Shown: positions 21,728 to 44,438, numbered from the stretch's first letter. The stretch is 64,000 bases of DNA from Candidatus Bathyarchaeia archaeon (GCA_049521795.1 JBEKOM010000001.1:512001-576000); one strand, 5' to 3'. Notes: generated by a model not told the origin, from the letters alone. Numbers and translations are program-made.

Positions 21728-22033
21728 GTCTACATTCTATACAAATAGGCGCGTACTCTTATGGTTTTCTGAATCGGGTCATAAAGGAATGTTCCATGTT
21801 GACTGAACAATAAAGCTCGAAACGATCCCCGTTCAGCGCGCGCTAAACGTTCCCAACAAGCAGGCGTCCCATCGCTGCATCCATGTTGATGGTGCGTCTT
21901 GTCTTCTTCGTTTTGTGCTGCACCTTAAGGCTCCAGATGGGCAGCAGAACCAGTTCCCTTGACTCTGACTTTACGCCTCACAAACCAAGTCCTTGGACCC
22001 ACCCGACAGCCCCCCATCCAACATGAACATCCA

Positions 22034-22098
22034 CAGCGTTTTCAACAATGCCGGCTCACTGTATATACAAAATGTATATGCAAAACGTATAAGCTCTT
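22034..22098 (-). repeat. Dispersed non-coding element, copy A (three 13-mers plus GTTGAAAACGCTG)
   Basis: Minus strand TTATACGTTTTGC ATATACATTTTGT ATATACAGTGAGC CGGCATTGTTGAAAACGCTG; matches 34529-34636 and 39118-39225. Confidence 0.85.
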
Positions 22099-22187
22099 GC
22101 GCGCGCTCCGTTCTCTTTCTCACAGTGCCTTTCCTGACACTATCAATTATCTCGGATCGACACAAAGGCGAGCTTGCACGCACGCTA

Positions 22188-25179: not shown

Positions 25180-25824
25180 CTAAAAGGTTGAAAAACTACC
25201 CAAGTTCTGGATCCTGTTCAGAAACTCTTCCTTTTCCTTCTCCACTTCTGCCTTCTTTCTTGTCAGAAAATCCAATTCCTCGGATATCTCTTCTAGCCAC
25301 CGTTTAATAGCTAAGCCGCATTCTTCATCACTCTCCCTAGACAAGTACGAAGAAACGTCGCAAGGTACCCCCCTCTTCAACAGGCCCAATGGATAATTGA
25401 TGAGCTGATATTTTGAGAACGGAAAGAAATGCCTAGTCGTACGAGGTTCCATGAGTTGCCTATCAAGTCCCGCCGAGATAACCCTCTCAACAGCAATCTC
25501 TTCATTCGGATCACTCGTGTATTGATGAATCCTTCTTCTTCCAACGCGAATCGCTGGCTTTTGGAAAACGTCAACTAGCAACACTGGTATTGACTTGCAG
25601 CCAATGCTCTTGAGCGCTAGCCAACGATGCATTCCGTCTAGGATGACGCGTGTCCTTTCGTCAGCCACTATGGGATACCTGAGCACTCCATCCCTGAGTA
25701 TTTCACGTCTAAGAAACTCCAAGTAGACGGGAGAACCCTTTTCATGTGGTCTGAGTTGGTCAATTTGTAACAAGACCACTCTATTGAATCTTGAATTTTC
25801 AGTTCTCAGAACACTTGATGTCAA
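25180..25824 (-). CDS. ParB/Srx-fold protein, SerK/SbnI-like (putative free-serine kinase)
   Basis: LRPHE, PIVAD, ILDGMHRW.AL and PRTTRHFFPF motifs. Confidence 0.7.
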   Translation of the reverse strand: MTSSVLRTENSRFNRVVLLQIDQLRPHEKGSPVYLEFLRREILRDGVLRYPIVADERTRVILDGMHRWLALKSIGCKSIPVLLVDVFQKPAIRVGRRRIHQYTSDPNEEIAVERVISAGLDRQLMEPRTTRHFFPFSKYQLINYPLGLLKRGVPCDVSSYLSRESDEECGLAIKRWLEEISEELDFLTRKKAEVEKEKEEFLNRIQNLGSFSTF

Positions 25825-25839
25825 TGGTTTCCAATTCTC

Positions 25840-27225
25840 CTAATGGCTGAACGTGGGAACTTCGATTTTCTCCGGTTCGTACTCTACGAGTTTTCCGGCA
25901 AGAAACTGCTCATACGCTGACAGGTCAAGCAAGCCGTGCCCACTGTAATTCATCGCGATTATTCTCTTTTCACCAGTCTTCTTGCATCTCAGAGCCTCGT
26001 CTACGACAAATTTCAGGCTGTGAGCCGTTTCAGGAGCCGTTATCATGCCTTCCGTTTGAGCCAGCAGCTTCGCGGCCTCGAAAATCTCTACTTGACCGTA
26101 CGCAACTGACCTTGCATAGCCTTTATGGATCAGGTACGATATCAACGGCGCCATCCCGTGATATCTTAAACCACCCGCATGGACTGGGGGACACGCATAA
26201 TCGTGTCCAATCGTCAGCATCTTGATGAGCGGAGTCATCTTGCCAGTGTCACCGTGGTCATAAGTGTAAATACCTCTGGTCGTGTGCGGAATCGCCTTCG
26301 ATTCGCATGCAACAAACTCCGTGCTTGTTTTTCCTCTGAGCTTATCCCTCATGAACGGGAAGCAGAAACCACCATAGTTGGAACCGCCGCCTATGCAACC
26401 GCAGACCACGCTTGGGCTTATGTCTAAGAGTTCAAACTGTTTTTTGGCCTCCAACCCCACGATGGTTTGATGCATCAAAACATGGTTCAGCACTGAGCCA
26501 AGCGAATATCTGGTATCGTCATGAGCGAGAGTGTCTTCTATGGCTTCAGTGATCGCTATGCCAAGTGTCCCAGGAAGGTTCGGATTCTCTTTAAGCAGCT
26601 TCCTGCCGAAGCTTGTCTGGTCGCTTGGCGATGGGAACATCTCAGCTCCGTACAGTTGCGCTATCGTTCTCCTGCCAGGCTTCTGTTCATAGCTCACTCG
26701 GACCATGTATATTCGGCATTTCAACCCAAAAAGCCGGGTTGCCAAGGCCAAGGCTGTTCCCCACTGCCCTGCGCCTGTCTCAGTGGCAAGTCTTTCGACC
26801 CCTTGTTTCTTGTTGTAGTAGGCTTGCGCGATGGCCGTGTTGGTCTTGTGGCTCCCCGTGGGACTGAAGTTTTCACACTTGAAGTATATCTGCGCAGGCG
26901 TCTTCAAGAACTTCTCAAGCCTGCGTGCACGGTAAAGCGGAGTTGGACGCGGAAGCCCGAGATACGCGTCAAGCACATCATTCGGTATTGGGATGAAGCG
27001 TTCCGCTGAAACCTCTTGTTTGACAAGTTCTTTCGCAAATATCCTTTCAAGCATCTCTGGACCTATCGGCTTCAGCGTTGTTGGATCCAACGGAGGTGCC
27101 AGAGGTTCTGGCAGATCGGCTTGTATGTTGTACCAAGATGTGGGTATGTCGTCTGGGCTCAAGTTTGTCACATATTCTGCGTTTTTGTGCGATTGCTGTG
27201 TCATTTTAGGTTCTCCAATGAACAT
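25840..27225 (-). CDS. trpB2: TrpB2-type tryptophan synthase beta subunit
   Basis: IPTSWYNIQADLP, TGSHKTNTA, TETGAGQWG, GSVLNHV, HAGGLRYHG. Confidence 0.93.
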   Translation of the reverse strand: MFIGEPKMTQQSHKNAEYVTNLSPDDIPTSWYNIQADLPEPLAPPLDPTTLKPIGPEMLERIFAKELVKQEVSAERFIPIPNDVLDAYLGLPRPTPLYRARRLEKFLKTPAQIYFKCENFSPTGSHKTNTAIAQAYYNKKQGVERLATETGAGQWGTALALATRLFGLKCRIYMVRVSYEQKPGRRTIAQLYGAEMFPSPSDQTSFGRKLLKENPNLPGTLGIAITEAIEDTLAHDDTRYSLGSVLNHVLMHQTIVGLEAKKQFELLDISPSVVCGCIGGGSNYGGFCFPFMRDKLRGKTSTEFVACESKAIPHTTRGIYTYDHGDTGKMTPLIKMLTIGHDYACPPVHAGGLRYHGMAPLISYLIHKGYARSVAYGQVEIFEAAKLLAQTEGMITAPETAHSLKFVVDEALRCKKTGEKRIIAMNYSGHGLLDLSAYEQFLAGKLVEYEPEKIEVPTFSH

Positions 27226-27314
27226 TTACATACATTGATGCTATTTAGCATACTCAAGACGGCAAGAACATATTTATACTTTGTTGCACAAAAATGTACA
27301 CGGGGCCAGCTGCC

Positions 27315-27818
27315 ATGTGGAGTAACGTGAAGAAATATTTCGAGGGGCATCCTGAGAGGCTCAGTGTAACCCGCGTTCTCATCGAGAATGGACTCAGTGC
27401 AAGGAGCGGGAAGATTTACCTTAACGAGATCGAGATTCCGCCAGTGCGTGTGGCCCGGGCTGCAGGGGTGGACAGGAGAACTGTCAAGGAGACATTGAAC
27501 GCAATAAAATCTGACCGTGAACTTAGGTTGATATTTGAGGGCATAAGATCTTCTGGACTTTCACTCAAGGAGATTGCTAAGCATTTGAACTTGGGAGTGG
27601 TCGAAATAACACCTGTCGATGCGAAGATCCCGGGAATACTAGCCAGCTCCGCAATGATTTTGGCGAAGAATGGTTTGAGCATAAGACAGGCAATCGTGGA
27701 CGACCCCGAGCTTTCACCCGAACCCAAACTTTCACTGATCGTTGAAAAGAAAATCCCAGGGGAACTCATTCCTGAGCTACTGAATGTGAAAGGAGTGGCC
27801 AAAGTCTCAGTGTACTAG
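27315..27818 (+). CDS. ACT-domain amino-acid-binding regulator with HTH
   Basis: IEIPP..VARAAGVDRRTV, PGILA, ISIRQAIVDDPE; divergent from trpB2. Confidence 0.82.
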   Translation: MWSNVKKYFEGHPERLSVTRVLIENGLSARSGKIYLNEIEIPPVRVARAAGVDRRTVKETLNAIKSDRELRLIFEGIRSSGLSLKEIAKHLNLGVVEITPVDAKIPGILASSAMILAKNGLSIRQAIVDDPELSPEPKLSLIVEKKIPGELIPELLNVKGVAKVSVY

Positions 27819-27979
27819 GCGGTCAAGAGCAGTTGTCGCGTTCTAAGTAGAACTGTGTTTTGAACAGCCTATTTCATGTTGCTTTTTTCCAACGTTGAAA
27901 TCACCATGCTTTCGGCAGAAAAGATAATAGAGAGCAGCAAGGGCAATTAAACAGGAGCAACGTTATGGATGGCTAACTG

Positions 27980-29959
27980 ATGGCAAGGATAGGCGTGTAC
28001 GTCTGCCACTGCGGCTCAAACATCGCTGGTGTTGTTGATGTGGAAAAAGTGGTGGAATACGCCAAAACTCTGCCAGATGTTGTGATAGCCAAGCATTACG
28101 CTTACATGTGTTCTGAACCTGGACAACAACTTATTCAAGATGATATTGAAGACCAAAAACTTGACAGAATAGTGATTGCAACATGCTCACCTCGCATGCA
28201 CGAAGAAACGTTCCGCAGAGCAGTTGCAGAAGCTGGACTAAACCCATACCTTACTGAGATAGTCAACTTGCGAGAACAAGTCTCGTGGGCGCACACTCGT
28301 GAGCCTGAGAAGGCAACAGAAAAGGCTGAAGCGCTCGTTAGGATGGGTGCGGCTCGCGCGAGGCTTCTGGAGCCGTTAGAGAAACGCAAGATGCGCGTTG
28401 AAAGGGGCGTCTTGGTCTTAGGCGGCGGCATAGCTGGCATGCAAGCCTCGCTTGACTTGGCCAATGCAGGTTTCAAAGTTTACCTAGTCGAGAAAGCCCC
28501 CAGCATAGGCGGAAAGATGGCCCAGCTGGACAAGACTTTTCCGACGATGGACTGTTCAATGTGCATTCTTGCTCCGAAAATGATAGATTGTGCGCACCAC
28601 CCGAATGTTAAACTACTCACCTACTCGGAAGTCAAAGACGTAAAGGGCTCGGTCGGCAATTTCAAGGTGACGGTTCTCAGAAAGCCGAGATACGTTGACG
28701 AGAAAAAGTGCACCGGATGCCTGATCTGCTCGGAGAACTGCCCCGCAGAAGCGCAGAGCGAGTTTGATGAGTGCATAGGAGTGAGAAAGGCGATCTACAT
28801 GCCCTTCATGCAAGCGGTTCCCAGAGTGCCAGTAATAGACAAGGAAAGTTGCGTTGAGTGCGGTCTTTGCGAGAAGGTCTGTCCTGCCGATGCCGTCAAC
28901 AGGGCGCAGAAACCGGAAGAGATCGAGCTCAACGTTGGAGCAATCGTCGTTTCAACTGGCTTCGATGTTTTCGACCCTTCGGTGATTCCGCAGTACGGAT
29001 ACAAACGATTCAAGAACGTAATAACAGCCATGGAACTTGAACGCCTTGTATGCGCATCTGGCCCGACAGGAGGACATCTGACAAGACTTTCGGACGGGAA
29101 GATACCCAGAAGCATAGCTTTCATACAATGCGTGGGCTCTCGAGACAGACGCTTCCACGAGTACTGCTGCCGCGTGGGATGCATGGTGACGCTCAAGCAG
29201 GCAATCTTGGCCCGCGAGAAGATCCCGGGCGACTTGAAGATATACACGTGTTTCATTGACCTTCGAGCGTTCGGCAAGGGCTACGAGGAATTCTATAGGC
29301 GCGCAAGGGACATGGACATAGATTTCGTGGCTGGCTTACCCTCTGAAATCCACTGCGCAGCGGACGGGTCACTCTACTTCGACGTTTATGACAGGGGAAC
29401 AAACAAGCTCTTAGAAGTTCACGCAGACTTGGTCGTGCTTGGAACGGGACTCGTACCGAGTGGCGACCTCGGGAAAATCAGTGCGCTGTTGCACGCGTCT
29501 AGAAGTGCAGACGGTTTCCTCTTGGAAGCACACCCGAAGCTGCGACCGCTCGAGAGTGCGATGGCAGGCGTGTTTCTCGCAGGAGCGTGTCAAGGACCCA
29601 AGGACATTCCTGACACGGTGGCGCAGGCAAGTGGAGCCGCGGCAAAGGTGATAGACCTGCTTTCAAGCGGAGAGATCGATATTGAACCGTTGAAAGCCGT
29701 GGTTGACAAGGACCTGTGCAGCGGATGCAGGATCTGCGAGTCAATATGTCCTTTTGTCGCTGTAGAGATGAAGTCTGAGCTCGTGAAGGGTGAAGAAAAG
29801 CTAACGGCTGAAGTCGTTGAGGCTGTGTGCCAGGGTTGCGGTCTGTGCAGCTCTGCTTGTCCGACGGGCGCTGTCAAAATCCAGCAATATGGTAACAAGC
29901 AGGTTGTGACTCAAGTTCAAGCAGCACTAGCGGAGACCTGCGCTGAAGGAGGGGTGTGA
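27980..29959 (+). CDS. hdrA: Heterodisulfide reductase subunit A
   Basis: IGVYVCHCG.NI, CSPR.HE, GGGIAG, LDKTFPTMDCS.CIL, FIQCVGSRD, EAHPKLRP, ferredoxin inserts. Confidence 0.96.
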   Translation: MARIGVYVCHCGSNIAGVVDVEKVVEYAKTLPDVVIAKHYAYMCSEPGQQLIQDDIEDQKLDRIVIATCSPRMHEETFRRAVAEAGLNPYLTEIVNLREQVSWAHTREPEKATEKAEALVRMGAARARLLEPLEKRKMRVERGVLVLGGGIAGMQASLDLANAGFKVYLVEKAPSIGGKMAQLDKTFPTMDCSMCILAPKMIDCAHHPNVKLLTYSEVKDVKGSVGNFKVTVLRKPRYVDEKKCTGCLICSENCPAEAQSEFDECIGVRKAIYMPFMQAVPRVPVIDKESCVECGLCEKVCPADAVNRAQKPEEIELNVGAIVVSTGFDVFDPSVIPQYGYKRFKNVITAMELERLVCASGPTGGHLTRLSDGKIPRSIAFIQCVGSRDRRFHEYCCRVGCMVTLKQAILAREKIPGDLKIYTCFIDLRAFGKGYEEFYRRARDMDIDFVAGLPSEIHCAADGSLYFDVYDRGTNKLLEVHADLVVLGTGLVPSGDLGKISALLHASRSADGFLLEAHPKLRPLESAMAGVFLAGACQGPKDIPDTVAQASGAAAKVIDLLSSGEIDIEPLKAVVDKDLCSGCRICESICPFVAVEMKSELVKGEEKLTAEVVEAVCQGCGLCSSACPTGAVKIQQYGNKQVVTQVQAALAETCAEGGV

Positions 29960-29960
29960 C

Positions 29961-30470
29961 TTGAGTCTCATTGACCTGATGTCAATGGCCAAGCCCAACT
30001 TCGAATTGCGAGACAGAATTCTGCTGAAGCTCGGCGGAAGGGAGCTCGTAAACTGTTACCAGTGTATAAAGTGCACGAGCGGCTGCACGGCTCTGAAGTT
30101 GCTGGAGCTGAAGCCGCACGAAATAGTGAAGCTCGTCAACCTGGGTCTAGTGGAGGATTTGCCATCTTCAGACATAATTTGGACCTGCGTCACATGCTTG
30201 AAATGCGTCCAAAGGTGCCCGCAGAAGGCTTCGCCTTACCACGTGATAATAGCCCTCAGAAACCTTGCCGTTGAAAGAGGGGCAGAAGTGCCCCAGGGAT
30301 ACTTGAAAATCGTTTCACAGATACTGGAGACCGGGTTGGCAGAGCCTCCTCAGAAGATCGTGACCAGAAAGATGGAAACCGTTGACCGCGAATCCGCGAA
30401 ACTGCCGAAGATCAAGCCTCCGAAGCAGACTTTTCAAGCCGCGCTCATGAAGACTATGGAGGAGAAGTAG
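29961..30470 (+). CDS. hdrC: Heterodisulfide reductase subunit C
   Basis: CYQCIKCTSGC and IWTCVTCLKCVQRCPQ 4Fe-4S motifs. Confidence 0.9.
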   Translation: MSLIDLMSMAKPNFELRDRILLKLGGRELVNCYQCIKCTSGCTALKLLELKPHEIVKLVNLGLVEDLPSSDIIWTCVTCLKCVQRCPQKASPYHVIIALRNLAVERGAEVPQGYLKIVSQILETGLAEPPQKIVTRKMETVDRESAKLPKIKPPKQTFQAALMKTMEEK

Positions 30471-30471
30471 G

Positions 30472-31347
30472 GTGAAAATCGCCGTCTACTGGGGCTGTTG
30501 CATACAGGCTAACCAGTTTGCCTACGAGATGTCGCTTCGGGCAACTCTTCCCAAGTTTGGCGTTGAGCTGGTCGACCTGAGCGAATCCGTCTGCTGCGGC
30601 GACCCGGTGAAGAGCGTCAACGAGGTTGCGGCCAACTTCCTAGCGGCTAGGGTTCTAGCCTTAGCAAACTTAACCGGCCTAGACAGCCTGCTTGTCCCGT
30701 GCAACCGATGCCACTTCACACTCTCTGAAGCTCAGGACACGATGAAGAAGAACCCTCAGACCGCTCAGAAGATCATCAGCTTGCTGAAAGAGGAGGGACT
30801 AGACTACTGCCCGAACATCAAGATCTGGCACACGATCGACCTTCTACACGACTTCGTGGGGTTAGAGAAAATCAGGAAGGCTGTGAAGAAACCTCTCAGC
30901 GGTTTGAAGGTCGCCACTCACGTGGGCTGCCAGGTGATACGTTTTAGTGACTTGGGAAGGGTTGACGATGCAGAGAACCCGCGAAAGCTCGATGAACTGT
31001 TAGAAGCAATCGGTGCTGAAGCCGTGGACTATGCTGAAAAGCTTGATTGCTGCGGGGCGGCGTTGATGCGCAGTCATCCTGATTCCGCCCTTTCCCTTGC
31101 GGGTTCCAAGCTGAAGGCCGTGCAAGGCTTGAACGTTGCAGGTCTGGTCGTATCGTGCCCTGAGTGTCAGCTGATGTTTGACGCGAAGCAGAAGGACGCG
31201 GAGACGACTGTAGGAGTGAAACTCAACGTTCCTGTAGTTTACTACACGCAGCTGCTCGGCCTTGCGCTTGGCATAGGCGAGAGGAAGCTGGGCCTGCACT
31301 TAAATCAAAGCCCGGCAGAACTGCTTCTGACAAAGGTTTCGAGTTAG
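30472..31347 (+). CDS. hdrB: Heterodisulfide reductase subunit B
   Basis: Two CCG domains (YWGC..CCG..PCNRC; HVGC..CCG..SCPEC). Confidence 0.92.
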   Translation: MKIAVYWGCCIQANQFAYEMSLRATLPKFGVELVDLSESVCCGDPVKSVNEVAANFLAARVLALANLTGLDSLLVPCNRCHFTLSEAQDTMKKNPQTAQKIISLLKEEGLDYCPNIKIWHTIDLLHDFVGLEKIRKAVKKPLSGLKVATHVGCQVIRFSDLGRVDDAENPRKLDELLEAIGAEAVDYAEKLDCCGAALMRSHPDSALSLAGSKLKAVQGLNVAGLVVSCPECQLMFDAKQKDAETTVGVKLNVPVVYYTQLLGLALGIGERKLGLHLNQSPAELLLTKVSS

Positions 31348-31396
31348 AGCTGCAAACAACTTTTATATTGGCTTTCGCAAAGCTTTCCATCAAAAG

Positions 31397-32623
31397 GTGA
31401 AGAAGATGGTTGAATTTGGGTTCACAGAGGAACAGGAACTCTTCCGCAAGGCTGTGCGCGAATGGTGCGAGAAGAACCTGCCCATAGAGAAGATCAGAGA
31501 GATGGACACTCAGGGCTGGATCCCTCAGTCGATGCTTAAGAGCATGGGTGAAATGGGACTGAACATAATGACGGCTCCGGAGGAGCACGGCGGAACAGGC
31601 GCAGACTGGATCACGGCTTGCATTGCAGCAGAGGAGCTTGGCTACGCAGACGTGAGCATCGCGTTGCCAGTGCTTTGGCTGGTGGAATCATCCTGGGGAT
31701 ACGTGGTCGACAGGCATGCAAGCGAAAGGGTCCGCAACGACGTCATACGCCCGGCAATCAGAGGCGAGGCTTTCATAGGTATAGGTTCCACAGAAGCCGG
31801 CGGAGGGTCAGACGTTGCGGCCTTAAAGTCCACAGCAAAGAAAGTGGGAAACGACTGGGTCCTGAACGGTGAAAAAACGTACATAAGCGGCACTGAGGAG
31901 GCAAAGAAGCTCGGCGGCGGCTACTTCGTCCTTGCACGAACATCACCGATATCGCCGGAAGCTGCCCACCGTGGAATGACCGGTTTCTACGTGCCTATGA
32001 ACACGGCTGGGGTTGAAATTAACAAGCGCTACGAAGACATGGGAAGAATGGCAATATCAACAGGCGGCTTTGTCATGAACAACGTCAAGATACCTGACGC
32101 CTATCGCTTAGGCGACGTGGACAAGGGTTTCTACCTTACGATGGAAGGCTTCGACGCCGCGCGCATCCTCATCTCCAGCGTTTGCGTCGGCGCTGCGAGA
32201 CGCGCCCTCGACGTTGGCATGGAATATATAAAAGAGCGAAAAGCCTTCGGCAGAGCCATCGGCAAGTTCCAGGGCATCCAGTTTGAAATGGCAGATGATT
32301 GGGCGCACCTTGAGGCTCTGCGGTCTCTGACGTACAGAACTGCGTGGATGTTGGACATGCGCTACAAGGAAAACAAGTTTACTCCGCTTGAGGTGACCAA
32401 AATGATCGCGGCTTGCAAGCTCCTGGCCCCGCATCTGGCCTTTGACGTTTACAAGCATGCTATGATCTGGCTTGGAGCATGGGGCTACACCAGAGAATGC
32501 CCGTTGGAGATGGGTCTGCGCGGCATAATGTCCTACTGCGTTGGAGCTGAAGGGGCCACGAACATACAGCGAACGGTGATTGCAAGAGAACTGCTGGGGA
32601 AGGACTTCATCGCGTACAAGTAG
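31397..32623 (+). CDS. Acyl-CoA dehydrogenase
   Basis: FTEEQELFR, TEAGGGSDV, LNGEKTYISG, RKAFGRAIGKFQ, GAEGATNIQR. Confidence 0.94.
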   Translation: MKKMVEFGFTEEQELFRKAVREWCEKNLPIEKIREMDTQGWIPQSMLKSMGEMGLNIMTAPEEHGGTGADWITACIAAEELGYADVSIALPVLWLVESSWGYVVDRHASERVRNDVIRPAIRGEAFIGIGSTEAGGGSDVAALKSTAKKVGNDWVLNGEKTYISGTEEAKKLGGGYFVLARTSPISPEAAHRGMTGFYVPMNTAGVEINKRYEDMGRMAISTGGFVMNNVKIPDAYRLGDVDKGFYLTMEGFDAARILISSVCVGAARRALDVGMEYIKERKAFGRAIGKFQGIQFEMADDWAHLEALRSLTYRTAWMLDMRYKENKFTPLEVTKMIAACKLLAPHLAFDVYKHAMIWLGAWGYTRECPLEMGLRGIMSYCVGAEGATNIQRTVIARELLGKDFIAYK

Positions 32624-32664
32624 GTTAAACCCTTCTCGTTTTTCCCTTTGAATAAAGTGAAGAT

Positions 32665-33639
32665 TCACTGAAGCTGTCTTTTCAATGCGTCTTTGAGGGC
32701 TGGCAACACTTCGTAAAGGTTGCCCACGACTCCGTAGTCTGCGATTTCGAATATCGGTGCTTCTGGGTCCTTGTTTATCGCCACGATTATCTTGGAGTCG
32801 CGTATGCCGGCGACGTGCTGGATCACGCCCGAAATGCCGCATGCCATGTAGAGTTTAGGTTTGACCTTGTGTCCAGAGAGCCCTATCCATTCTGTGAACC
32901 ACTTTCTGTCCTCGACCAGCGGGCGTGAGCAGCCGACTTGGCCGCCTAGAACGTTTGCGAGTTCTTCTAGCAGGAGCTTGTCGTCTTTTTTCTCTAGGCC
33001 TCTTCCACAGCAGACCAGGTACTCGGCTTCCTCGACGTTCACGCTTGACGTTTCAAGGGGTTTTCTTTCAACGACTTGGGTCTTCGGTTCCTCAACCTTC
33101 ACGTCTAGTTTGATCACCTGTCCGTTTCGGGTTTGAGGCGTGGGCTTCTCAAACGCTCTTGCGGGCACGGTTGCTACCTGCGGCTTGGACTTGAAGGTCA
33201 CCTTGGCCACGGCGTTTCCGCCGTAGGTTATCCTTTCGCCGATGAGTCTTCTGTTCTCGTCAACGCTCAGTCTTGCGCAGTCTGGCACGCATCCAGTGGT
33301 TAGCCGGGTTGCGAGTCTGGCTGCAAGGGGCTTTCCGTTTCTGGTCGACCCGACGAGCAGGATTTCTGGCCGGTAGGTCATGACCAAGTTGTGCAGGATG
33401 CCTAGGTAGGCTTCAGCCTGAAAATGCTCCAGAGCCGGGTTGTCGGCCAAGAAGACCTTGTCTGCGCCGTATCTTATCAGTTCGTTTGCTTTGTCTTGCA
33501 CGTTGTTTCCGATAAGGATGGCTGTGAGTTCCGTTTGCAGCTTGTCTGCCAGTTCTCTTCCTTTTCCGAGCATTTCGATGGTCAGGTCGTGCGCTTCTGA
33601 GAAGACCCAGACTCCCCTGTTTTCGCTCATCCGGTTCAC
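32665..33639 (-). CDS. etfA: Electron transfer flavoprotein alpha subunit
   Basis: GRG, GCSRPLV, IGLSG..VKPKLY.ACGISG.IQH.AG, AINKDPEAPIF. Confidence 0.95.
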   Translation of the reverse strand: MNRMSENRGVWVFSEAHDLTIEMLGKGRELADKLQTELTAILIGNNVQDKANELIRYGADKVFLADNPALEHFQAEAYLGILHNLVMTYRPEILLVGSTRNGKPLAARLATRLTTGCVPDCARLSVDENRRLIGERITYGGNAVAKVTFKSKPQVATVPARAFEKPTPQTRNGQVIKLDVKVEEPKTQVVERKPLETSSVNVEEAEYLVCCGRGLEKKDDKLLLEELANVLGGQVGCSRPLVEDRKWFTEWIGLSGHKVKPKLYMACGISGVIQHVAGIRDSKIIVAINKDPEAPIFEIADYGVVGNLYEVLPALKDALKRQLQ

Positions 33640-34424
33640 CTTCCGACGACGCCCTCTTGAATCAGTGCTTTGGCCAGCTTCTCCGCGATCTCCTGCACGG
33701 ATTCGCCTGTGATCTTGATCTTCTTTCTCTCCATCTTCGGTGCCAAGGCGTCTATGACTTCGGTTTTTGCGGCGATTTTTTCAGTGGAAACGTTGAGGTC
33801 CTTCAGCGTCCAAGTGACGATTTCTTTCTTCGAAGCTTTCATTATCATCATGAGCGACGGGATTCTCGGCTGGTTTATTTCCCGCGTTACCGAGATTAAG
33901 GCAGGCATCTTCGCCTTCACGGTCTCGCTTGCGTCCTCAAGCGACCTTTCAGCGACGACCGTGTCGCCTTCCACCGCAACTTTTCGCACAGAGGTTATCT
34001 GAGGCAGGTTTAACAGTTCTGCCAGTCTGGGACCGACAAGCCCGCTGAAGCTGTCCAGCGATGCTTCGCCGCAGAGAATCAGGTCGAAGTCAACGATCTT
34101 CTTTATCATTTCAGCAAGAACGTAAGCCGTACCCAAAGTGTCTGCTCCCTGAACGCTTGGGTCATTGACGACGTAGGCTCTGTCAGCACCGATCGCAAGC
34201 GTTTCCCTCAACACGGGCTTTGCGTCTTCAGGGCTCACAGTCAGCGTGACAACTTCGACGCCGCCGAGCTTCTCTTTGATCCTGATAGCCTCCTCCAACG
34301 CGTTCTTATCGAAATCGCTCATTTTCTTAGGCGCGCCAGCCGTGACCAGCCTTCTAGTCGCGGGGTCAACCTTCAACTGTGAAACGTCAACTGCCTGTTT
34401 GAGGCAAACGAGTATGCGCTTCAA
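33636..34424 (-). CDS. etfB: Electron transfer flavoprotein beta subunit
   Basis: ILVCLKQ, FDKNALEEA, GADRA, DLILCG, INQPRIPS. Confidence 0.95.
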   Translation of the reverse strand: MKRILVCLKQAVDVSQLKVDPATRRLVTAGAPKKMSDFDKNALEEAIRIKEKLGGVEVVTLTVSPEDAKPVLRETLAIGADRAYVVNDPSVQGADTLGTAYVLAEMIKKIVDFDLILCGEASLDSFSGLVGPRLAELLNLPQITSVRKVAVEGDTVVAERSLEDASETVKAKMPALISVTREINQPRIPSLMMIMKASKKEIVTWTLKDLNVSTEKIAAKTEVIDALAPKMERKKIKITGESVQEIAEKLAKALIQEGVVGR

Positions 34425-34528
34425 ATAATTTCACCCGTGGCAATCCTTATTGGAGAAACGAAGCATAGAACATGGCATATTAAAACTTTCGCATGACCCT
34501 GTTGAAGAGTCTAATGCTCAAAGAAGAT

Positions 34529-34636
34529 CGACGCGCTGGCTTATCCTCAAATTCGCAACAATTTTGATTTTAAGAGTATATACGTTTTGCATATACACTT
34601 TGTATATACACTTGGCGAGCATCGTTGAAAACGCTG
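34529..34636 (+). repeat. Dispersed non-coding element, copy B (108 bp)
   Basis: ATATACGTTTTGC ATATACACTTTGT ATATACACTTGGC GAGCATCGTTGAAAACGCTG; aligns over 108 bp with 39118-39225. Confidence 0.9.
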
Positions 34637-34945
34637 TTCGTCTGGGCAGGAACGCTACATCCCTGTATTCGCGTTTTGGCCCCGTCTATTTCACCCCCCT
34701 CCCCCTAGGGTACTAGTACTGCACGCAGGCGTTGCGAAGGGCCCTACTAGATTTGCACAGGTCTGAAGCCGAGTTAATGGGAAGGGTTTGGCGGAGGATC
34801 TCGGCAAGGGCGGTGACTTTTCAATGCGCTCGGCCATCACGCCGTCTTTGCCACACGCACACTCTGCAGTATTCACTTCGCATTTAGGCGAAGGTTATAA
34901 TCCTTGTTTGTTGTCACTGTTTGATTCTAAGAAGGGAAGATTTGC

Positions 34946-35095
34946 TTGAACCGATCGAGGAAAAAGCAGGCGAAAAGAGAACGATCTTTGAAAAGAATGA
35001 AAAGTCGAGGAACATGGAAACACGGAAAAAGTAACGGTGAGAAAGTAAGAAGACTAGAAAAAGCGCGAGCTCTTCTAGCCAATGCGTCTCCATAG
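34946..35095 (+). CDS. Putative 49-aa basic micro-protein (MNRSRKKQAKRERSLKRMKSRGTWKHG...)
   Basis: Manual translation; TTG start after purine-rich GAAGGGAAG. Confidence 0.35.
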   Translation: MNRSRKKQAKRERSLKRMKSRGTWKHGKSNGEKVRRLEKARALLANASP

Positions 35096-35678
35096 GACAA
35101 GGCGTCCGCAACTTGCGAAACATGCCTATTCTCTATTAGTTCCTTTCTCTGCGCTTGAGCAAAGGAATCATAACACAGCCTGAACGCCTAGTCCAACGTT
35201 TTCGCGATGTTTCTAAAGCCTGTCTGCGTAGAACAAGGCATCGATGCCATTGCTTTCTCAACCTTCCTTTGAATGAACGTCGTCATTGCGCCCTTTCTTC
35301 TATGAGATTGACCCAATAACTAAATGGCGCGCATGCTTGTTCCTAAATTCATAAATTCCGTTCAAGAGGAAGGCATGACTTTTCCGATGGTGTATGTTTA
35401 CTGTCCCAGTTCGGGCTGGGTGCTTTCTTGCTCTCACACCCTCCCTCCCGGGTATCCTATATGACCCAAATATGATTGAAGAGCAAAACGAGCAACACAA
35501 GCTGCGTTTCAAACAAATTCAGGAACGTGCTAGCCCGCGGAAGAAGCGCGAAGAAACCCGAAGAGAACGTAAAAAAGCGACTTTTGGCCTCTCATCCTTA
35601 TAAGCTAGGCTGAGAACGTATATTGCAAGAAAGGCGCGCTAACCAACTTATCGCAACATCATTTGCCTTAGGACTAGC

Positions 35679-36005
35679 TTGCTTTTTTCTGAAGGGTATT
35701 ACAACATGTTAAATGTGGGGAAGGTATCTGACGGAAACCGTAGCAGATTACAGATCATAGCGGAGATTCTGAGGCAGCTGCGAATGCCGTTAGGAAAGGC
35801 GAACATCATGTCCCATTGCAACATGAGCACAGCACAATCAGGGCAATACTTGAATCTTACGACGTCAAGTAATCTCATTCAGATGGGTGCTGATGCAGGA
35901 AAAGTGACGTACCTGAGAACAGAAGCTGGTCTGGAGTTTCTAGAATTGTACAAGAAGATGGCTCTGCTACTTGATACTGGCATTTCTTCACCTTTTCTAG
36001 TTTAG
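35679..36005 (+). CDS. Archaeal winged-helix DNA-binding protein (HTH_45-like)
   Basis: NRSRLQIIAEIL...KANIM..CNMS...YL..L...LI...Y.RTEAG.EFL. Confidence 0.8.
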   Translation: MLFSEGYYNMLNVGKVSDGNRSRLQIIAEILRQLRMPLGKANIMSHCNMSTAQSGQYLNLTTSSNLIQMGADAGKVTYLRTEAGLEFLELYKKMALLLDTGISSPFLV

Positions 36006-36033
36006 CCAATGCAGAGAAAAGAATGAAGGAGAG

Positions 36034-36216
36034 GTGATGTTGTTGCTGAATATTAAGGATGTCAGGAAGTGCAGGAACTCTTTGGAGCTGAACGACTTTA
36101 TCGAGAAGTACATTGCCGAGGGGAACTCGAAAGACGAGAGTATCGACAGTACATACTGGAGTCTGTTCGAAGAATGGAAAAGAGCTCTGAAGAAGAAGCC
36201 CACGAGCATGCTTTAA
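36034..36216 (+). CDS. Small hypothetical protein
   Basis: 60 aa with GGAGAGGTGA Shine-Dalgarno. Confidence 0.5.
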   Translation: MMLLLNIKDVRKCRNSLELNDFIEKYIAEGNSKDESIDSTYWSLFEEWKRALKKKPTSML

Positions 36217-36273
36217 CGCGCGCTTAAAAAAGGGCAAACTGCCTATTTTTAGGCGTCGATCTGCAAGCGCTTC

Positions 36274-36471
36274 TTGCAGTTGGTCGAGGAATCTGGAATG
36301 AAGAAGAGTGTAGAGAAAATCAATAATTCGGCGTTCGCATCGAACGCATTTGGAATCACAGAGGAGGGGTCGAATAAAGCAGTGAAGAAGTTCAGGTCAT
36401 TAGAGGACATATCCATAGAGCAGAGAAGGAGAGGTGCAAGTCAACCTCTCTACTTGTACCGATATGAGTAG
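36274..36471 (+). CDS. Small hypothetical protein
   Basis: ORF only; probable start ATG at 36298 after GAGGA. Confidence 0.35.
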   Translation: MQLVEESGMKKSVEKINNSAFASNAFGITEEGSNKAVKKFRSLEDISIEQRRRGASQPLYLYRYE

Positions 36472-36491
36472 CGGGCAGATATTGAAGCGGA

Positions 36492-36716
36492 TTATCCGAG
36501 CAGGACTTCCAGTATCAATTTGTGACGTAAGACCTCAGCAAGGTCTGCTTGTTCTATGGCATTTTCCAAAGCATCAAGTTCTTTTTGCACAGTCTTTCTC
36601 ATTTCTTCGCTGATTTTTTGATTGATCTCTTTCATTTGTCTCTGATACAGGTCGTCCGCCTCTCCTCTAAGTCTCCAATAACGCTCCAGCAAAGATTCTT
36701 TTTTGGTTTGTTCCAT
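36492..36716 (-). CDS. Small coiled-coil hypothetical protein
   Basis: 74 aa helical sequence, AGGTGTGA upstream. Confidence 0.55.
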   Translation of the reverse strand: MEQTKKESLLERYWRLRGEADDLYQRQMKEINQKISEEMRKTVQKELDALENAIEQADLAEVLRHKLILEVLLG

Positions 36717-36858
36717 TATTCACACCTTTTTCATCTGTTTTTGTTTGTTATTTGGGTTGCCTCAGTTCATTGATTGTATCAACAGGCATTAATAGTTTGA
36801 GCACCCACGAGAGAAGAAGACAGGCGTCTTTGTTCTCAGGTGAGAAGAAGGCAGTTAC

Positions 36859-36987
36859 ATGGGTTACGCAAGAGGAAAAACAAGAGAAGAAGATCTGAAA
36901 AAACCTAAGCCTCAGAAAAAGAAAGAAAGGGAAGAGAAGCGGAAGAAGAAAAAACTTGCCCGACTCGAAAGACAGCAGTCCAGATAG
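36859..36987 (+). CDS. 42-aa Lys/Arg-rich micro-protein MGYARGKTREEDLKKPKPQKKKEREEKRKKKKLARLERQQSR
   Basis: Manual translation; AGGTGAG upstream. Confidence 0.45.
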   Translation: MGYARGKTREEDLKKPKPQKKKEREEKRKKKKLARLERQQSR

Positions 36988-37208
36988 GCTCGTCTAGAGC
37001 ACAAGCAAGAGAGATTTTCTGTTCGCACAGCACGCGCGTGGCGTGAGTCTATTTCTCACGCAGCGATTGTCTTCTTTTCAGCGCTCGTTTTTGCACGTAA
37101 CGAGCTTACAAAGGTTCTAGGCTATGCCATAAAGACGCACACCAGAGTTTACACGTGCAAATGATTTATATCCGACTTTCCTAGACTCTTTCCTCCGAGA
37201 GTGAAATT

Positions 37209-37526
37209 ATGCCAATATTTTTGATAGTTTCTAGGCATTCTGCAGAGAACTGTCCGCTGAACAATGAGAAGATGAAGAAAATGACGTTAGAATTGCCAGC
37301 CAAATTGGGCGGATTGGAGAAGAAACATGGAGTGAAGAGGATTGGAGCATGGACTGTAGTTCCGGAACATCTGTTGATTTGGGTCTATGAAGCCCCAAGC
37401 TCAGATGCTCTGCAAAAATTCTCGATGGAACCAGAAATGGTAAGATGGATGGCTTGGAACACCAGCGAAATCAAACTAGCAATGAGTCTCGAAGAAAGCC
37501 TGAAACTTCTAAAACAAGTCAAATGA
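37209..37526 (+). CDS. DUF3303/GYD-like small alpha-beta protein
   Basis: FLIVSRHSAENCP...KHGVK.IGAW....EH....VYEAPS; own TATA-like TTTATA and T-rich 3' end. Confidence 0.75.
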   Translation: MPIFLIVSRHSAENCPLNNEKMKKMTLELPAKLGGLEKKHGVKRIGAWTVVPEHLLIWVYEAPSSDALQKFSMEPEMVRWMAWNTSEIKLAMSLEESLKLLKQVK

Positions 37527-37586
37527 AATCGCAACTTCTTTTTTCTCTGATTTTGCACCGGTCATTCAGCCAGCGTGCGCTCGTAA

Positions 37587-37868
37587 TTAATCTCTGTGTT
37601 CGTGGGATTCCTCTTCAGACTCTTCTTCATTCTCTTCTTCTTCCTCGGCAGCTTCTTCTCCTACGGCTCTTGCTTCTTCTTCAGCTTCTCCTTCTGCAGA
37701 ATAAGCCTCATCTAACCAGATCCTGAACTGTTCTTTGCTCTCAGGATCGGAAAAGGCCCACTCGCACAGTTGACTGACAACGGCGTTTAGATCGATGTCA
37801 TGATCGTCGGCCAAATTCTTCAGAAACTGTTCCCACTTTGGAGGCAGAGATATCGAAGACCCAACCAT
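37587..37868 (-). CDS. Hypothetical protein with RHH-like N-terminus and acidic tail
   Basis: SISLPPKWEQFL..LA...VVSQL then poly-Glu tail; GGTGA Shine-Dalgarno. Confidence 0.6.
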   Translation of the reverse strand: MVGSSISLPPKWEQFLKNLADDHDIDLNAVVSQLCEWAFSDPESKEQFRIWLDEAYSAEGEAEEEARAVGEEAAEEEEENEEESEEESHEHRD

Positions 37869-38060
37869 TTTACTCTTTCACCATCACCTTTTATCATTCA
37901 AGCCATATTTAAGCTTCAGACGTACTTTTTGCCCGAAAGGTGCCTGAAACTGAGCGCGCGCTTCAAGCTAGCGAGCGTTTTCGCAGAATGAATCAGGCAA
38001 AATGATAAACAATTTATGAATCCGAAATCTAGACGCACGCTAAAGGAAAGAGACTGGATT

Positions 38061-38213
38061 CTATCTTTGTTCTTTTACCAACAACAGTCTCTTCGCGGTC
38101 TCTTTAGCGATCTTTTCAAGGCCCTCGGCTAATTCTGCACGGGTAACCTCGTCTATTGGATACACTTTCCCATTCTTATCGATGAATGCAAGTTCCAACT
38201 TCCTTTTTTCCAC
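38061..38213 (-). CDS. 50-aa hypothetical protein (MEKRKLELAFIDKNGKVYPIDEVTRAELAEGLEK...)
   Basis: Perfect GGAGGTGA Shine-Dalgarno before GTG; below ORF-track cutoff. Confidence 0.6.
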   Translation of the reverse strand: MEKRKLELAFIDKNGKVYPIDEVTRAELAEGLEKIAKETAKRLLLVKEQR

Positions 38214-38302
38214 CGTTTCACCTCCTTCACACTCTATCATCTGCTACGGCGCGCGCCAACCTAAGAATCACAAGTTCCAATCCGCCATGTAAATCTAGTT
38301 TT

Positions 38303-38602
38303 TTAGTAGTTGCCGCGAGCGCGAGCAAGCTTGTAATTTCTATCTGACTCATCTGACGCTTGCTTGACCTTTCTATCTGACTCCTCGATCGCTCGATCTC
38401 GATCGATCGACGCTTGCTTGATATAGTTGTGTTCGCTCAGGTAGGCCATCACGATTGATCTGATTATTTCTGCGTCCTTTGTTCCAAAGCCTTTCAACGA
38501 CTGGATAATCTCCACTTGGTCTTCATCGAAGGTCACAAGAACGCGTTTACGCGAGCGTGCACCTTGACTAATCACTTCTGTCATGTATTCCTTAATCTTC
38601 AT
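38303..38602 (-). CDS. CopG/ribbon-helix-helix family regulator
   Basis: KRVLVTFDEDQVEII..LKGFG.KDAEIIRSIVMAYLSE pattern; duplicated KQAS..ESDR tail. Confidence 0.7.
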   Translation of the reverse strand: MKIKEYMTEVISQGARSRKRVLVTFDEDQVEIIQSLKGFGTKDAEIIRSIVMAYLSEHNYIKQASIDRDRAIEESDRKVKQASDESDRNYKLARARGNY

Positions 38603-39117
38603 GCACGGTCATATATTCTTTGAGATCCCTGTCTCTTCCTCATTCAGAAAGACCGAATGGTTGCCGTGCTAGGAAGCATTGACGATGCAGTTATGTTCAA
38701 ACTCGGATATGTCAATATGAAGCTTCAAGATCAGATAAGGCCGTTCACATCGCTAAGCAGTTTGTCTCAAGCAAAATGGAAGTACAGAATCAGGTCTTGT
38801 AGAAATAAGTATACGTATTTCTCTCTTGTCATGAAGCGACGATACTCGATAATGAAACCGATCAGGACAACACAAGGTCTGCAAGAGCGAAAACGCACGG
38901 TCAGCCTAAGTCTGAACTTCAAAAGTGAACTCAAAGCTTTTTATCTCAAAAGCGTCCTGTTTTCTTTCATGTGCCCTGGATCTAGCAAAAGGTATGCACG
39001 CGATTACACAGATGAGGAGCTTCGGGCTCAGGCTCGCGATCTCGAGTGCGCCGTAACGATTCCCGTGAACGTGCCGGTGTCTTATTGTGAGCGCGTAAAG
39101 CAGCGCATCGTGGCCTT

Positions 39118-39225
39118 CGGCGCGTTGGCTTGTCCCTAAATTCGCAAAAAGTGCTGATCTGAAAGCATATACAATTTGCATATACACTTTGCATATACAG
39201 TTGACGAGCATCGTTGAAAACGCTG
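39118..39225 (+). repeat. Dispersed non-coding element, copy C (108 bp)
   Basis: ATATACAATTTGC ATATACACTTTGC ATATACAGTTGAC GAGCATCGTTGAAAACGCTG. Confidence 0.9.
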
Positions 39226-39340
39226 AGGCCGTTCAGGTTGGCTGCCGAGCTGTGTGGGCGGTTCAAGTGCGCACGCATAATAGAGGGACACGGCAGCGTG
39301 CTTTACCGCAAGTGATTTAAGAAAAAGGTAGCATCGGCAA

Positions 39341-40222
39341 GTGGGGAATGGAATGGCTTCTCTTCAATCTGTTAATGTCGATAGTGTTGAGCTGAGTTTC
39401 GTTGAGAGAGGCGCTGGGCGGTCAGTCATCTTCATTCATGGGATACCCACGGATTACAGGGCGTGGGATGCTCAAGTGGAAGCACTGTCGAAAGGTTTTC
39501 ACACGCTTAGCTACAGTAGGAGATGCGCATACCCTAGCAAGAGGAAGGACTTCGAGAACAGCACGATCGAGAATAACGCGAAGGACCTTGCTGGGCTGAT
39601 AAAGACGGTTGATGACGGTCCGGTTCATCTGGTGGGCCACTCGTACGGCGGGTTCGTCGCTGTCTACTGCGCGTTTCAGCACCCCGAGCTTGTGCGGAGC
39701 CTCGTTTTGGCCGTGCCCTACATTCCTACCTTGCTTATCAGGAACTTGGACTCTGCTCTGGATAAGTTCTCCCTTCTGGTGAGGAAGCCCTCAGTAGCGT
39801 TGTCTGCACAGAAGTTGTTGAATAACGCGGTTTACCCAGCGTTGAAGGAGCTTGACCAAGGAAACGGTGAGAAAGCCCTGAGGATACACCTCGACGGGTT
39901 GCAGCAGAGGCAGAACGCTTTCGACCAGTTCCCTGAACAAGTCAAGTCGATGCTGCTGGACAATAAAGAGACCATCAGGGAACTGACGACGAAGCTTCCG
40001 CCGTTCACCAGTGAAGAAGCCAGAACGGTTTCTGCGCCCACGTTGTTGATCAGAGGCGATAGCTGTCCGAAAGCCCTATGCGCCATAATCGAACTTCTCG
40101 CCAAAAGCATGCGCAAGAGCCAATCCACAACGGTCAGCAATTGTGCTCACTTCCCGCATTTTGAGAACCCTGAAGAGTTCAACTCGAAGATAAACGAGTT
40201 CCTTTCAAAACAAACCCCATAG
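39341..40222 (+). CDS. Alpha/beta-fold hydrolase
   Basis: IFIHG, VHLVGHSYGG nucleophile elbow, PTLLIRG, AHFPHFENPEEF. Confidence 0.92.
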   Translation: MGNGMASLQSVNVDSVELSFVERGAGRSVIFIHGIPTDYRAWDAQVEALSKGFHTLSYSRRCAYPSKRKDFENSTIENNAKDLAGLIKTVDDGPVHLVGHSYGGFVAVYCAFQHPELVRSLVLAVPYIPTLLIRNLDSALDKFSLLVRKPSVALSAQKLLNNAVYPALKELDQGNGEKALRIHLDGLQQRQNAFDQFPEQVKSMLLDNKETIRELTTKLPPFTSEEARTVSAPTLLIRGDSCPKALCAIIELLAKSMRKSQSTTVSNCAHFPHFENPEEFNSKINEFLSKQTP

Positions 40223-40243
40223 GCCCTTGAGCCCGCAAAATGT

Positions 40244-40280
40244 AGGTTGATTGGCGTAAAGTTTTATCCAAACCAAACTT
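40244..40280 (+). repeat. Palindromic cassette separator 1
   Basis: AGGTTGATTGGCGTAAAGTTTTATCCAAACCAAACTT. Confidence 0.75.
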
Positions 40281-40492
40281 GACGACGATGCCTTGCCGTG
40301 GAAAAAGGCAACCATTGTCAGGGCAATGTATACAGTTCAGAAGACACGGCATTCGCATTGCAAAAAGAGGCTATTAAGAGAATCAGGTCATAATAGGGTG
40401 GGATATAGGTAGTATCGGAATCGAGTATACGGTCGCGTCAATTCCTTTTCAAAAATCTATCATAGGATGGCTGTATCTTTTTTGAGACGTCT

Positions 40493-40606
40493 TTATTTCT
40501 TCTTATTTGCTTTTTTAGCGCATTGGGCACTGCAATATTTGTTTTTGTTATCTAACGTCGTAAAGACTTTTCCGCAAATTGAACATTTCTTTTGAATAAT
40601 TCCCAT
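40493..40606 (-). CDS. 37-aa zinc-finger micro-ORF (CSICGK...YCSAQC), possibly a truncated gene
   Basis: MGIIQKKCSICGKVFTTLDNKNKYCSAQCAKKANKKK; GGTGAGG upstream; AT-rich segment. Confidence 0.5.
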   Translation of the reverse strand: MGIIQKKCSICGKVFTTLDNKNKYCSAQCAKKANKKK

Positions 40607-40657
40607 TCAGTAGACCTCACCACTACAATTACGATTCAACAAATATAAGATTGCGCT

Positions 40658-40691
40658 GGTTGGGGTAAAGTTTTATCCCAAACCCAAACCC
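40658..40691 (+). repeat. Palindromic cassette separator 2
   Basis: GGTTGGGGTAAAGTTTTATCCCAAACCCAAACCC. Confidence 0.75.
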
Positions 40692-40745
40692 GAAGAATCG
40701 AGATGCAGAAAAGTTATAGCCGACCCAAATCAAGACTATCTTGTT

Positions 40746-41252
40746 TTGGCAGTGAAGGTGTCGACAATGATTGACATATCTACTGTTTCCATTGCGATTG
40801 CTTCTGCTGGTGTGCTAGCAGGCGTCATATATTACGTCCTAGAGATTCGGCATCAGAGCAGATTAAGACAAACGGAGAGTATGATTAGACTATCTCCATG
40901 GTTCAATATGAGCGCTAGAGAAGTGCAGGAAGCAATAACTCTAGTCTGTTCAATCGAATACGAAGACTATGATGACTATCTTGCAAGGTATTCGGAAAAA
41001 CCAGAGCACATGATGTTGAAGATTCTTGGCAACTATTTCGAAGGGATAGGCATCCTTGTCTACAGAAAACTGGTAGAAGCAGACATTGTGTCCGATTTCT
41101 GGGGAGATATCATCCGATCATCATGGGAGAAGATTGAGCCACTGATAGTGGACATGCGAAAGGATTCTGGCGACCTTGGCATGTTTGAGTACTGGGAGTA
41201 TCTCTACGAACAAATGAAAAGAAGAAAGCAGAAGCTTCGACCAACAGCATAG
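40746..41252 (+). CDS. DUF4760-like membrane-anchored protein
   Basis: N-terminal TM (SIAIASAGVLAGVIYY), GNYFEGIGILV, FEYWEYLY; probable start ATG 40767. Confidence 0.75.
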   Translation: MAVKVSTMIDISTVSIAIASAGVLAGVIYYVLEIRHQSRLRQTESMIRLSPWFNMSAREVQEAITLVCSIEYEDYDDYLARYSEKPEHMMLKILGNYFEGIGILVYRKLVEADIVSDFWGDIIRSSWEKIEPLIVDMRKDSGDLGMFEYWEYLYEQMKRRKQKLRPTA

Positions 41253-44010: not shown

Positions 44011-44227
44011 GACTCTTCGGGGCCAAGGTCGTCTCCAGCTTATTGAATGTGCTTGGCGCGCGCAATATCAACGGATTTTTGAGCTCATCTGGTTGTGCAT
44101 GGTGTTCGGTAGACGAACAGTATGGTCTCGTTTTTCATGCGTCCATATAAGATTGCTTATGTAGATTGTAGGCACTAACCTATCAGACCTATAAGAAACA
44201 ACGGATATAGATAGACTCGGTAAGAAT

Positions 44228-44287
44228 ATGCCAAAGAAAAGAGCACACGCAGGACTCAAGAAGAAGAAGAAACATCAAGAAACATAA
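44228..44287 (+). CDS. Putative 19-aa basic micropeptide MPKKRAHAGLKKKKKHQET
   Basis: Manual translation in the pcc1-serS gap. Confidence 0.3.
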   Translation: MPKKRAHAGLKKKKKHQET

Positions 44288-44438
44288 TCGACGCACCGCG
44301 CTAATAGAATGAGAACAATATCGCCTCCATCACTCGACTGTTAACAGGAAGAACCGTCACCCGCCAAGTTACTAGAACCCTTTATCATAAGGTTAAATAG
44401 CTAATTCAAGGCTAGACCTAAAGGCTGCGAGTGAAAGC

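Follow-up and report, generated by a model that had tools for sequence, protein, structure and literature searches.

The DNA analysed here is a stretch of 64,000 nucleotides from a Candidatus Bathyarchaeia archaeon genome (GCA_049521795.1, JBEKOM010000001.1:512001-576000), referred to below as the window. It carries three copies of a tandem 13-bp motif, designated A (22034-22098, minus strand), B (34529-34636, plus strand) and C (39118-39225, plus strand). A first-pass annotation had described this motif as a polar gateway element at the entry of accessory blocks, comparable to the attI site of integrons. The copies are present at these places and each consists of three 13-bp units followed by ...GTTGAAAACGCTG, the units being succeeded by ...CATYGTTGAAAACGCTG in the alignment of A, B and C. 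The motif is part of a MITE (miniature inverted-repeat transposable element) and not a recombination landing site. Throughout, G000 denotes the genome under study, other G-numbers denote related genomes, and L-numbers denote extracted loci.

The repeat unit and its copies

A profile derived from A, B and C and run across the whole 2.44-Mb genome gave 24 matches at E < 1e-4, indicating that the motif is real, repeated far beyond chance, and not special to the window. The boundaries initially given to it were wrong, as the actual unit is ~183 bp long and extends well outside them. An abrupt stop of similarity after GAAAACGCTG was borne out for B only, while A and C remain alike for ~45 more bases and C matches other family copies up to 39301. 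Alignment of the copies together with their flanks revealed sharp common boundaries among the 13 full G000 copies. The unit starts GCGCGYTGGCTTGTCCCTAAATTCGC and ends with an inverted match, ...GGGACAAGGCAGCGCGC, and its terminal inverted repeats share a 17-bp core, GCGCGYTGSCTTGTCCC, found at both ends in inverted orientation. Using a full-length, 183-position profile (nhmmer), 24 copies were located on 10 contigs of G000, of which 13 were full length and 11 partial. A set of 28 full copies ranged in length from 166 to 195 bp; they contained no transposase gene, and had as their sole coding content an 18-codon gene remnant. The element is very probably a MITE whose ends derive from an insertion sequence and whose core originated as a copy of the regulatory region and initial codons of a small regulator-like gene. 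A MITE end had been listed among the alternatives of the first-pass annotation; the element is indeed a MITE, and the motif described there is its internal cargo, not its end.

Table 1. Positions of copies A, B and C in the window and of the parts recognized within C.
Feature	Position	Strand	Basis
Copy A, most likely a relic, without inverted repeats	21991..22101	-	Model positions 40-150
Copy B, 3'-truncated MITE	34531..34636	+	Model positions 3-107, E 4.1e-25
Copy C, full-length MITE	39120..39301	+	Model positions 2-183, nhmmer E 6.6e-59
Left terminal inverted repeat of C, derived from insertion sequence	39120..39145	+	Inverted match to right end
Three tandem 13-bp units of C, near-palindrome TGCATATACA in each	39165..39203	+	Read from sequence
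Putative donor-gene remnant in C, start codon TTG and 17 codons, contains GTTGAAAACGCTG	39214..39267	+	Post-array profile, alignment
Right end of C, derived from insertion sequence	39278..39301	+	Alignment to G007 insertion sequence

Copy C is the complete representative in the window. Its first 23 bases are identical, except at a Y position, to the left end of an insertion sequence in the congener G007 (L040 from 770). The 24-base family consensus of the right end equals the right end of the same insertion sequence, with C itself differing at 3 positions. The 13-bp units of C probably served the donor gene as its promoter and operator array. A 160-aa open reading frame (ORF) at 38657-39139, without a Pfam match, has its TAA within the left inverted repeat of C and represents either a gene whose end was cut by the insertion or a spurious ORF. 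Copy B comprises the left inverted repeat, the spacer, three 13-mers, and the start-codon region. The conserved block preceding B ends at 34527-34528, and an unrelated repeat family (34650-34848) begins 13 bp after it.

Element matches were found in 6 of 41 related genomes (G000 included), with 13 in G001, 21 in G002, and 9 in G010, and with short partial matches in G007 and G025; beyond these, the element was not found in the remaining searched genomes of the genus. Similarity among copies was 75-87%. The number of 13-mers per copy varied from 2 to 4 and differed by one unit in all three of the G000/G002 orthologous pairs, which is minisatellite-like behaviour. Pairwise identity among 25 full copies was 0.897 for the 13-mer array, the best conserved part of the element, 0.869 for the left end, 0.838 for the right end, 0.798 for the gene remnant, and 0.569 for the spacer; since spacer sequences group into a few subfamily types, their identity is no neutral yardstick. 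In ten of the 11 partial copies the left end and array survive and the right part has been lost, at differing points; orphan right halves were not found among the G000 copies. This left bias may stem from selection acting on the array or from decay with a polarity. Mini versions of ~85 bp were also observed (L018, L019, L020, and L067), in which the array is accompanied only by GCGCGC-type ends; L020 has TA at both sides and L019 at its right end only.

Insertion-sequence ends, target sites and synteny

The ends of the element were traced to an autonomous partner. A search with a transposase fragment led to an intact insertion sequence of ~1115 bp in G007 with a single 348-aa ORF, which matched the Pfam families DDE_Tnp_1 (44.6 bits) and DUF772 (31.2 bits), both above their cut-offs. 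The left 23 and right 24 bases of this insertion sequence are identical to the MITE consensus ends. Public homologues of the transposase numbered 1942 proteins at E <= 0.001, many of them encoded on contigs of ~1.1 kb. Likeness to the IS5 family lies in the length of 1.1 kb, the single ORF combining DUF772 with DDE_Tnp_1, the short inverted repeats, and a TA-flanked relative in G001. This relative is a 1.08-kb insertion sequence with a split transposase, flanked TA...TA, and its ends are nearer to those of another repeat family, present in the window at 35324-35539, whose inverted repeats are related to those of the MITE. IS5 subgroups with TA-containing duplications of 2-4 bp are catalogued in ISfinder.

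In G000, two decayed copies of the partner were found, at C4:135192-135652 (82.6% amino acid identity) and C13:17102-17714 (80.5%). A pair search in G000 found no inverted-repeat pairs more than 350 bp apart, and a 5.6-kb pair on C15 contained no transposase-like ORF by inspection. The presence of only two decayed partner copies, together with the 75-87% similarity among element copies, suggests that the family is old and probably immobile in G000. The age of the family is likewise indicated by three copies common to G000 and G002 with a flank identity of 91-93%. When active, the element would have been moved by the 348-aa DDE transposase supplied in trans and binding the inverted repeats of 17-26 bp, with cut-and-paste insertion into TA sites, a mechanism taken over from the family of the partner.

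Evidence for insertion was obtained from the sequences directly outside the element and from orthologous sites. TA lies directly outside the left end in 7 of the 28 full copies (P 9e-5) and outside the right end in 6 of 28 (P 7e-4), compared with a genome TA frequency of 4.0%, in counts where three orthologous pairs enter twice. The G002 copy L030 is absent at the corresponding G000 site (C4:19201-19204), and the G000 copy C1:344206 is absent in four of five relatives (G001, G009, G005, and G004) and present in G002. Four further loci considered as clean empty sites (L024, L027, L019, and L011) proved to be replacements, solo ends, or diverged spacers. At one of these, L024, a full copy in G002 corresponds to a 21-base solo end left in G000 (C5:52729-52751). 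At one intergenic position the repeat family differs between G000 (C2:171676) and G001 (430599-430813). Occupation of the same site by different repeats suggests hot spots or replacement between related elements.

The same inverted ends bear on the possibility that the element is a small structured RNA gene family, transcribed and folding into a conserved structure. Base pairing between the two ends can form a 14-bp stem, and one copy (C1:403630) has mirrored changes in both ends. RNAalifold applied to 25 copies, however, recovered little beyond this end-to-end stem, with a covariation term of +0.17, and compensatory change was seen in only 3 of 25 pairs, in one sequence each. Searches against Rfam gave no match for the window at the gathering threshold, and for the element itself none with E <= 1. 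Furthermore, 11 of the 24 copies are partial, 10 of them without the 3' arm. A structured RNA, also raised as an alternative in the first-pass annotation, is thus a highly improbable account of the element.

The relationship of the copies to synteny was examined with respect to the proposed landing site, at which a site-specific recombinase would insert accessory blocks beside the GTTGAAAACGCTG end. In comparison with G001 and G002, each of A, B, and C is found at a synteny break or close to one. The interval 22176-34527 forms one block collinear with G001:1687005-1699354, and B begins exactly at its end; in G001 this site holds 87 unrelated bases followed by the same neighbouring repeat. Of three G000 copies tested outside the window, one (C6:34104) is also at a synteny break, its flanks mapping to different places in G001 and G002. 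The other two, however, lie between collinear conserved genes, and four G002 copies (L021, L022, L025, and L030) also have collinear surroundings, so that the expected coincidence with synteny breaks held for one tested copy in three and the element does not generally face accessory DNA. B and C had further been described as direct repeats bracketing a 4.5-kb island, but a mobile island between them was not confirmed. The segment 34851-38641 is 91-94% conserved at other positions of G001 and G002, in the other orientation in G002, and the element search reported no copies next to these counterparts. No B-to-C deletion joint was present among 15 of 46 joints from contigs of four DNA runs (21500-41000); backward joints from ~39151 to ~34575 resemble other copies mapping to both B and C, and the comparison is uninformative.

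The genome contains 10 tyrosine-recombinase (PF00589) matches, the nearest ~7.9 kb from any copy, and a serine recombinase was not found in the genome search. A consistent polarity, which had been part of the original description, was not recovered: when orientation was scored on a crude ORF map, 13 of 24 copies had their right end pointing at a co-oriented ORF and 16 of 24 had such an ORF before their left end, neither count being a clear bias. The first-pass annotation had itself named a match to a known insertion-sequence end as evidence against its proposal, and the element ends are insertion-sequence ends; GTTGAAAACGCTG, moreover, corresponds to the start-codon region of a predicted gene remnant. 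Comparison with integron attI/attC sites yields a superficial likeness, namely repeats beside a GTT-containing core near variable DNA in the window, but no integrase adjoins the element, in a comparison made without a search aimed at attC, its apparent core is a start-codon region, and its copies are bounded by insertion-sequence ends. The landing-site reading is therefore close to refuted. The apparent association of A, B, and C with accessory blocks is due to a repeat-rich, rearranged region and not to a dedicated function of the motif.

Captured cargo and the regulator-like donor gene

Two adjacent 13-mers were searched for in one genome per prokaryote species. The scan yielded 37 stretches, of which 31 came from records titled Bathyarchaeia or Bathyarchaeota, and many were without insertion-sequence ends. 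In 12 loci lacking terminal inverted repeats, from other Bathyarchaeia metagenome-assembled genomes, the array occurs in another conserved context. It lies 13-20 nt upstream of an intact 111-116-aa ORF in three of these (L063, L068, and L086), and in the remaining nine the ORF is short or broken. A profile of the post-array region alone matched the 5' ends of such genes, with E 3.3e-10 for L102 (the G001 gene copy) and E 4.5e-4 for L086 (98 kb searched). In the multiple alignment the MITE tracks the gene from the array through TTG AAA ACG..., over 18 codons and up to ...TTCAAG, after which it switches to the insertion-sequence end. The post-array stretch of the MITE is homologous to the first codons of the gene, and by this alignment GTTGAAAACGCTG, formerly viewed as a recombination core, is identified as the start-codon region of a gene remnant. 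The cargo between the ends would thus comprise an upstream array of 13-bp near-palindromes, a start codon, and 17 more codons, captured from a cellular or mobile-element gene for a protein of ~111 aa.

Copy A differs from the other two in this respect. It contains the donor-gene upstream region, the 13-mer array, and ~22 codons, shares ...TCCAAGGACTTGG with gene copies past the point at which the MITE switches to the insertion-sequence end, and follows the gene farther than the MITE does (...AAGGACTTGG); both ends are absent. The 80 bp upstream of A recur at G001:30583-30724. Because A continues with the gene beyond the switch and is without both ends, it is most likely a relic of the 5' region of the donor gene and not a MITE fragment, judging from these alignments.

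One intact homologue of the donor gene is present in G000 (C1:357231-357563), with three 13-mer-like units of different sequence upstream. Within the genus a close intact gene was found in G000 only; the G001 copy is broken, and the query used retrieved no close, intact regulator gene from either G001 or G002. A large protein collection contained 44 homologues, all unnamed or annotated as 'hypothetical' and none with a Pfam domain. The structure model (mean predicted local distance difference test, pLDDT, 79) has an unstructured N-terminus, helices at residues 12-24 and 29-42, and a separate C-terminal domain. A homodimer model of residues 1-50 scored 0.83, the best of 3 controls reaching 0.00, which supports binding; the dimer runs agreed in at least 97% of contacts with pLDDT of at least 91. 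Among proteins with solved structures, 20 of 30 that are pairs of one chain and 1 of 23 that are single chains reached the mark applied to this score. As ribbon-helix-helix dimers have already been solved, passing it may reflect likeness only.

The protein shares with ribbon-helix-helix repressors its small size, a short N-terminal strand-like segment followed by two helices, a G-x-T turn, a predicted intertwined dimer, and tandem short near-palindromes that probably overlap its own promoter; it differs in having an extra C-terminal domain of ~60 aa. Tandem operator arrays are characteristic of several ribbon-helix-helix repressors, including Arc, MetJ, CopG, and the SSV1 F55 repressor. The models are consistent with a ribbon-helix-helix-type regulator whose N-terminus would form an intertwined, weakly Arc-like dimer. 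Given N-terminal 50 residues of this type, the 13-mers are most likely operator sites of the ~111-aa protein, lying over its promoter.

Several results weigh against the combined interpretation of the element as an insertion-sequence-derived MITE with a captured regulator-gene fragment. On the side of the partner, the curated NCBIfam models were reached only below their cut-offs (IS5_4, 62.5 bits against 140; IS1182, 81.9 bits against 270), and hence the partner is named only IS5-like, within the IS4/IS5 superfamily; no intact transposase with matching ends was found in G000, G001, or G002. On the side of insertion, no clean target-site duplication emerged from the empty sites, L030, the one with clean flanks, being off by a few bases at its left junction, and the other empty sites were replacements or diverged intergenic DNA; with no perfectly clean case, the duplication is rated as likely TA. 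With respect to the cargo, translated MITE copies matched the protein profile weakly (best E 0.021, 246 translated pieces), and the cargo test consequently relied on the DNA-level profile. The operator-like units of the resident G000 gene (TGTTTATACA type) are unlike the MITE units (TGCATATACA). The ~111-aa protein had no Pfam match, and Foldseek searches of the PDB with the whole 111-aa model returned nothing at E <= 0.001, the best related rows being those of the Arc repressor, over 41 columns with E 2.5 and probability 0.66, and of DinJ, with E 0.84, so that the fold match to Arc is not significant. A wide VIA-align search gave Z <= 6.5, all on C-terminal helices 49-111, and a hidden Markov model search of PDB sequences produced chance rows only (E >= 0.37).

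The array also raises the question of present function. The 13-mer arrays could be non-mobile regulator boxes, native operators of a regulon placed before unrelated genes. Such a regulon would be consistent with the array being the best conserved part of the element, with its genuine position upstream of the 111-aa gene, and with A and C each lying upstream of a co-oriented gene. The arrays travel, however, with insertion-sequence ends and a gene remnant, 11 of 24 copies face a convergent ORF, the query used found no close intact regulator in G001 and G002 despite their many copies, and the empty orthologous sites argue for a mobile history. Native operators are accordingly a very unlikely explanation.

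A domesticated MITE fares somewhat better, while still being unlikely. Its copies would act as portable promoter/operator cassettes or decoy sites for the 111-aa regulator, the scattered array either placing neighbouring genes under control of the ribbon-helix-helix-like protein or titrating it. In such a transposon-borne regulatory cassette the array would be kept by selection, which would explain both its conservation above the inverted repeats and the gene remnant and the retention of the array-bearing left part in 10 of 11 partial copies; an intact regulator gene is, moreover, available in G000. Against this stand the unbiased orientation (13 of 24), the different operator-like units of the resident regulator, the failure of the query to find a close regulator in G001 and G002, and the subfamily structure of the spacer, which leaves no neutral baseline for the conservation of the array.

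Two loci beyond the MITE bear on the regulator. In G000 a distant paralogue (25-30% identity) adjoins two tyrosine-recombinase matches at C7:73053-75731 (L100, L105), a possible integrated element. Locus L063 is an entire contig of 5299 bases; it encodes an intact 114-aa homologue with a 13-mer array together with a 787-aa protein bearing a primase C-terminal domain, and may be a small plasmid or virus. On the domesticated reading, itself unlikely, the regulator may serve to repress a mobile element, given that one homologue is accompanied by a primase-like gene and a paralogue lies beside integrases.

Neighbouring repeats and comparison with known elements

The region around B and C contains additional repeats. 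At least four other repeat families of ~200 bp lie between them (34650-34848, 34866-35070, 35324-35539, and 38055-38237), each with many copies in both G001 and G002. The ~3.8-kb segment 34851-38641 has few long ORFs, among them one winged-helix ORF (35679-36005), and very high summed depth was observed at 36.5-38.4 kb in two metagenomes. Further downstream, 325 bp at 44055-44379 are inserted in comparison with both G001 and G002, where the two flanks adjoin with an overlap of 3 bases. Copies are present at other sites in G001 (94%) and G002 (92%), and the insertion is another small mobile element with a clean empty site. A 35-base stretch at 40657-40691 has further occurrences with 94-100% identity, at several sites in G009 and G004 and at one other in G000 (C11:89032); in metagenome contigs its depth is very high and loose ends are numerous.

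Prokaryotic MITEs include the Sulfolobus SM elements and the Neisseria Correia elements (reviewed in PMC10969869). The MITEs known in bacteria include some that carry promoters, protein-binding sites, or minisatellites, and a few archaea are also known to have MITEs (PMC10969869, PMC4596501); PMC4596501 describes a Porphyromonas MITE with an internal minisatellite. The present element is a clear MITE, being short, non-coding, bounded by terminal inverted repeats that match an autonomous insertion sequence, and dispersed in many, mostly intergenic copies. It resembles the Porphyromonas MITE in an internal tandem repeat of variable copy number, and the Correia elements in a possible internal promoter or protein-binding site. 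It differs from known prokaryotic MITEs in its host, a Bathyarchaeia archaeon, and in its core, which appears to have been captured from a regulator-like gene, as a fragment spanning promoter-operator and 5' coding sequence, and not to be a deleted transposase gene; the traceable captured cargo is its unusual feature. A literature search found no report on MITEs in Bathyarchaeia or Bathyarchaeota, and the publications retrieved that combine Bathyarchaeia, insertion sequence and transposase included none on this subject by title and the beginning of the abstract.

These findings remove a false lead, as no new integron-like system is present in this stretch, and document a MITE family and its partner insertion sequence in Bathyarchaeia. 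The 34.5-44.4 kb part of the window is a repeat-dense, plastic region that is useful for studies of rearrangement between close genomes. The element offers a rare traceable example of a prokaryotic MITE whose core appears to be a captured promoter-operator together with a 5' gene fragment. If the array still binds the regulator, the family would represent a natural instance in which transposition has dispersed regulatory sites in an archaeon.

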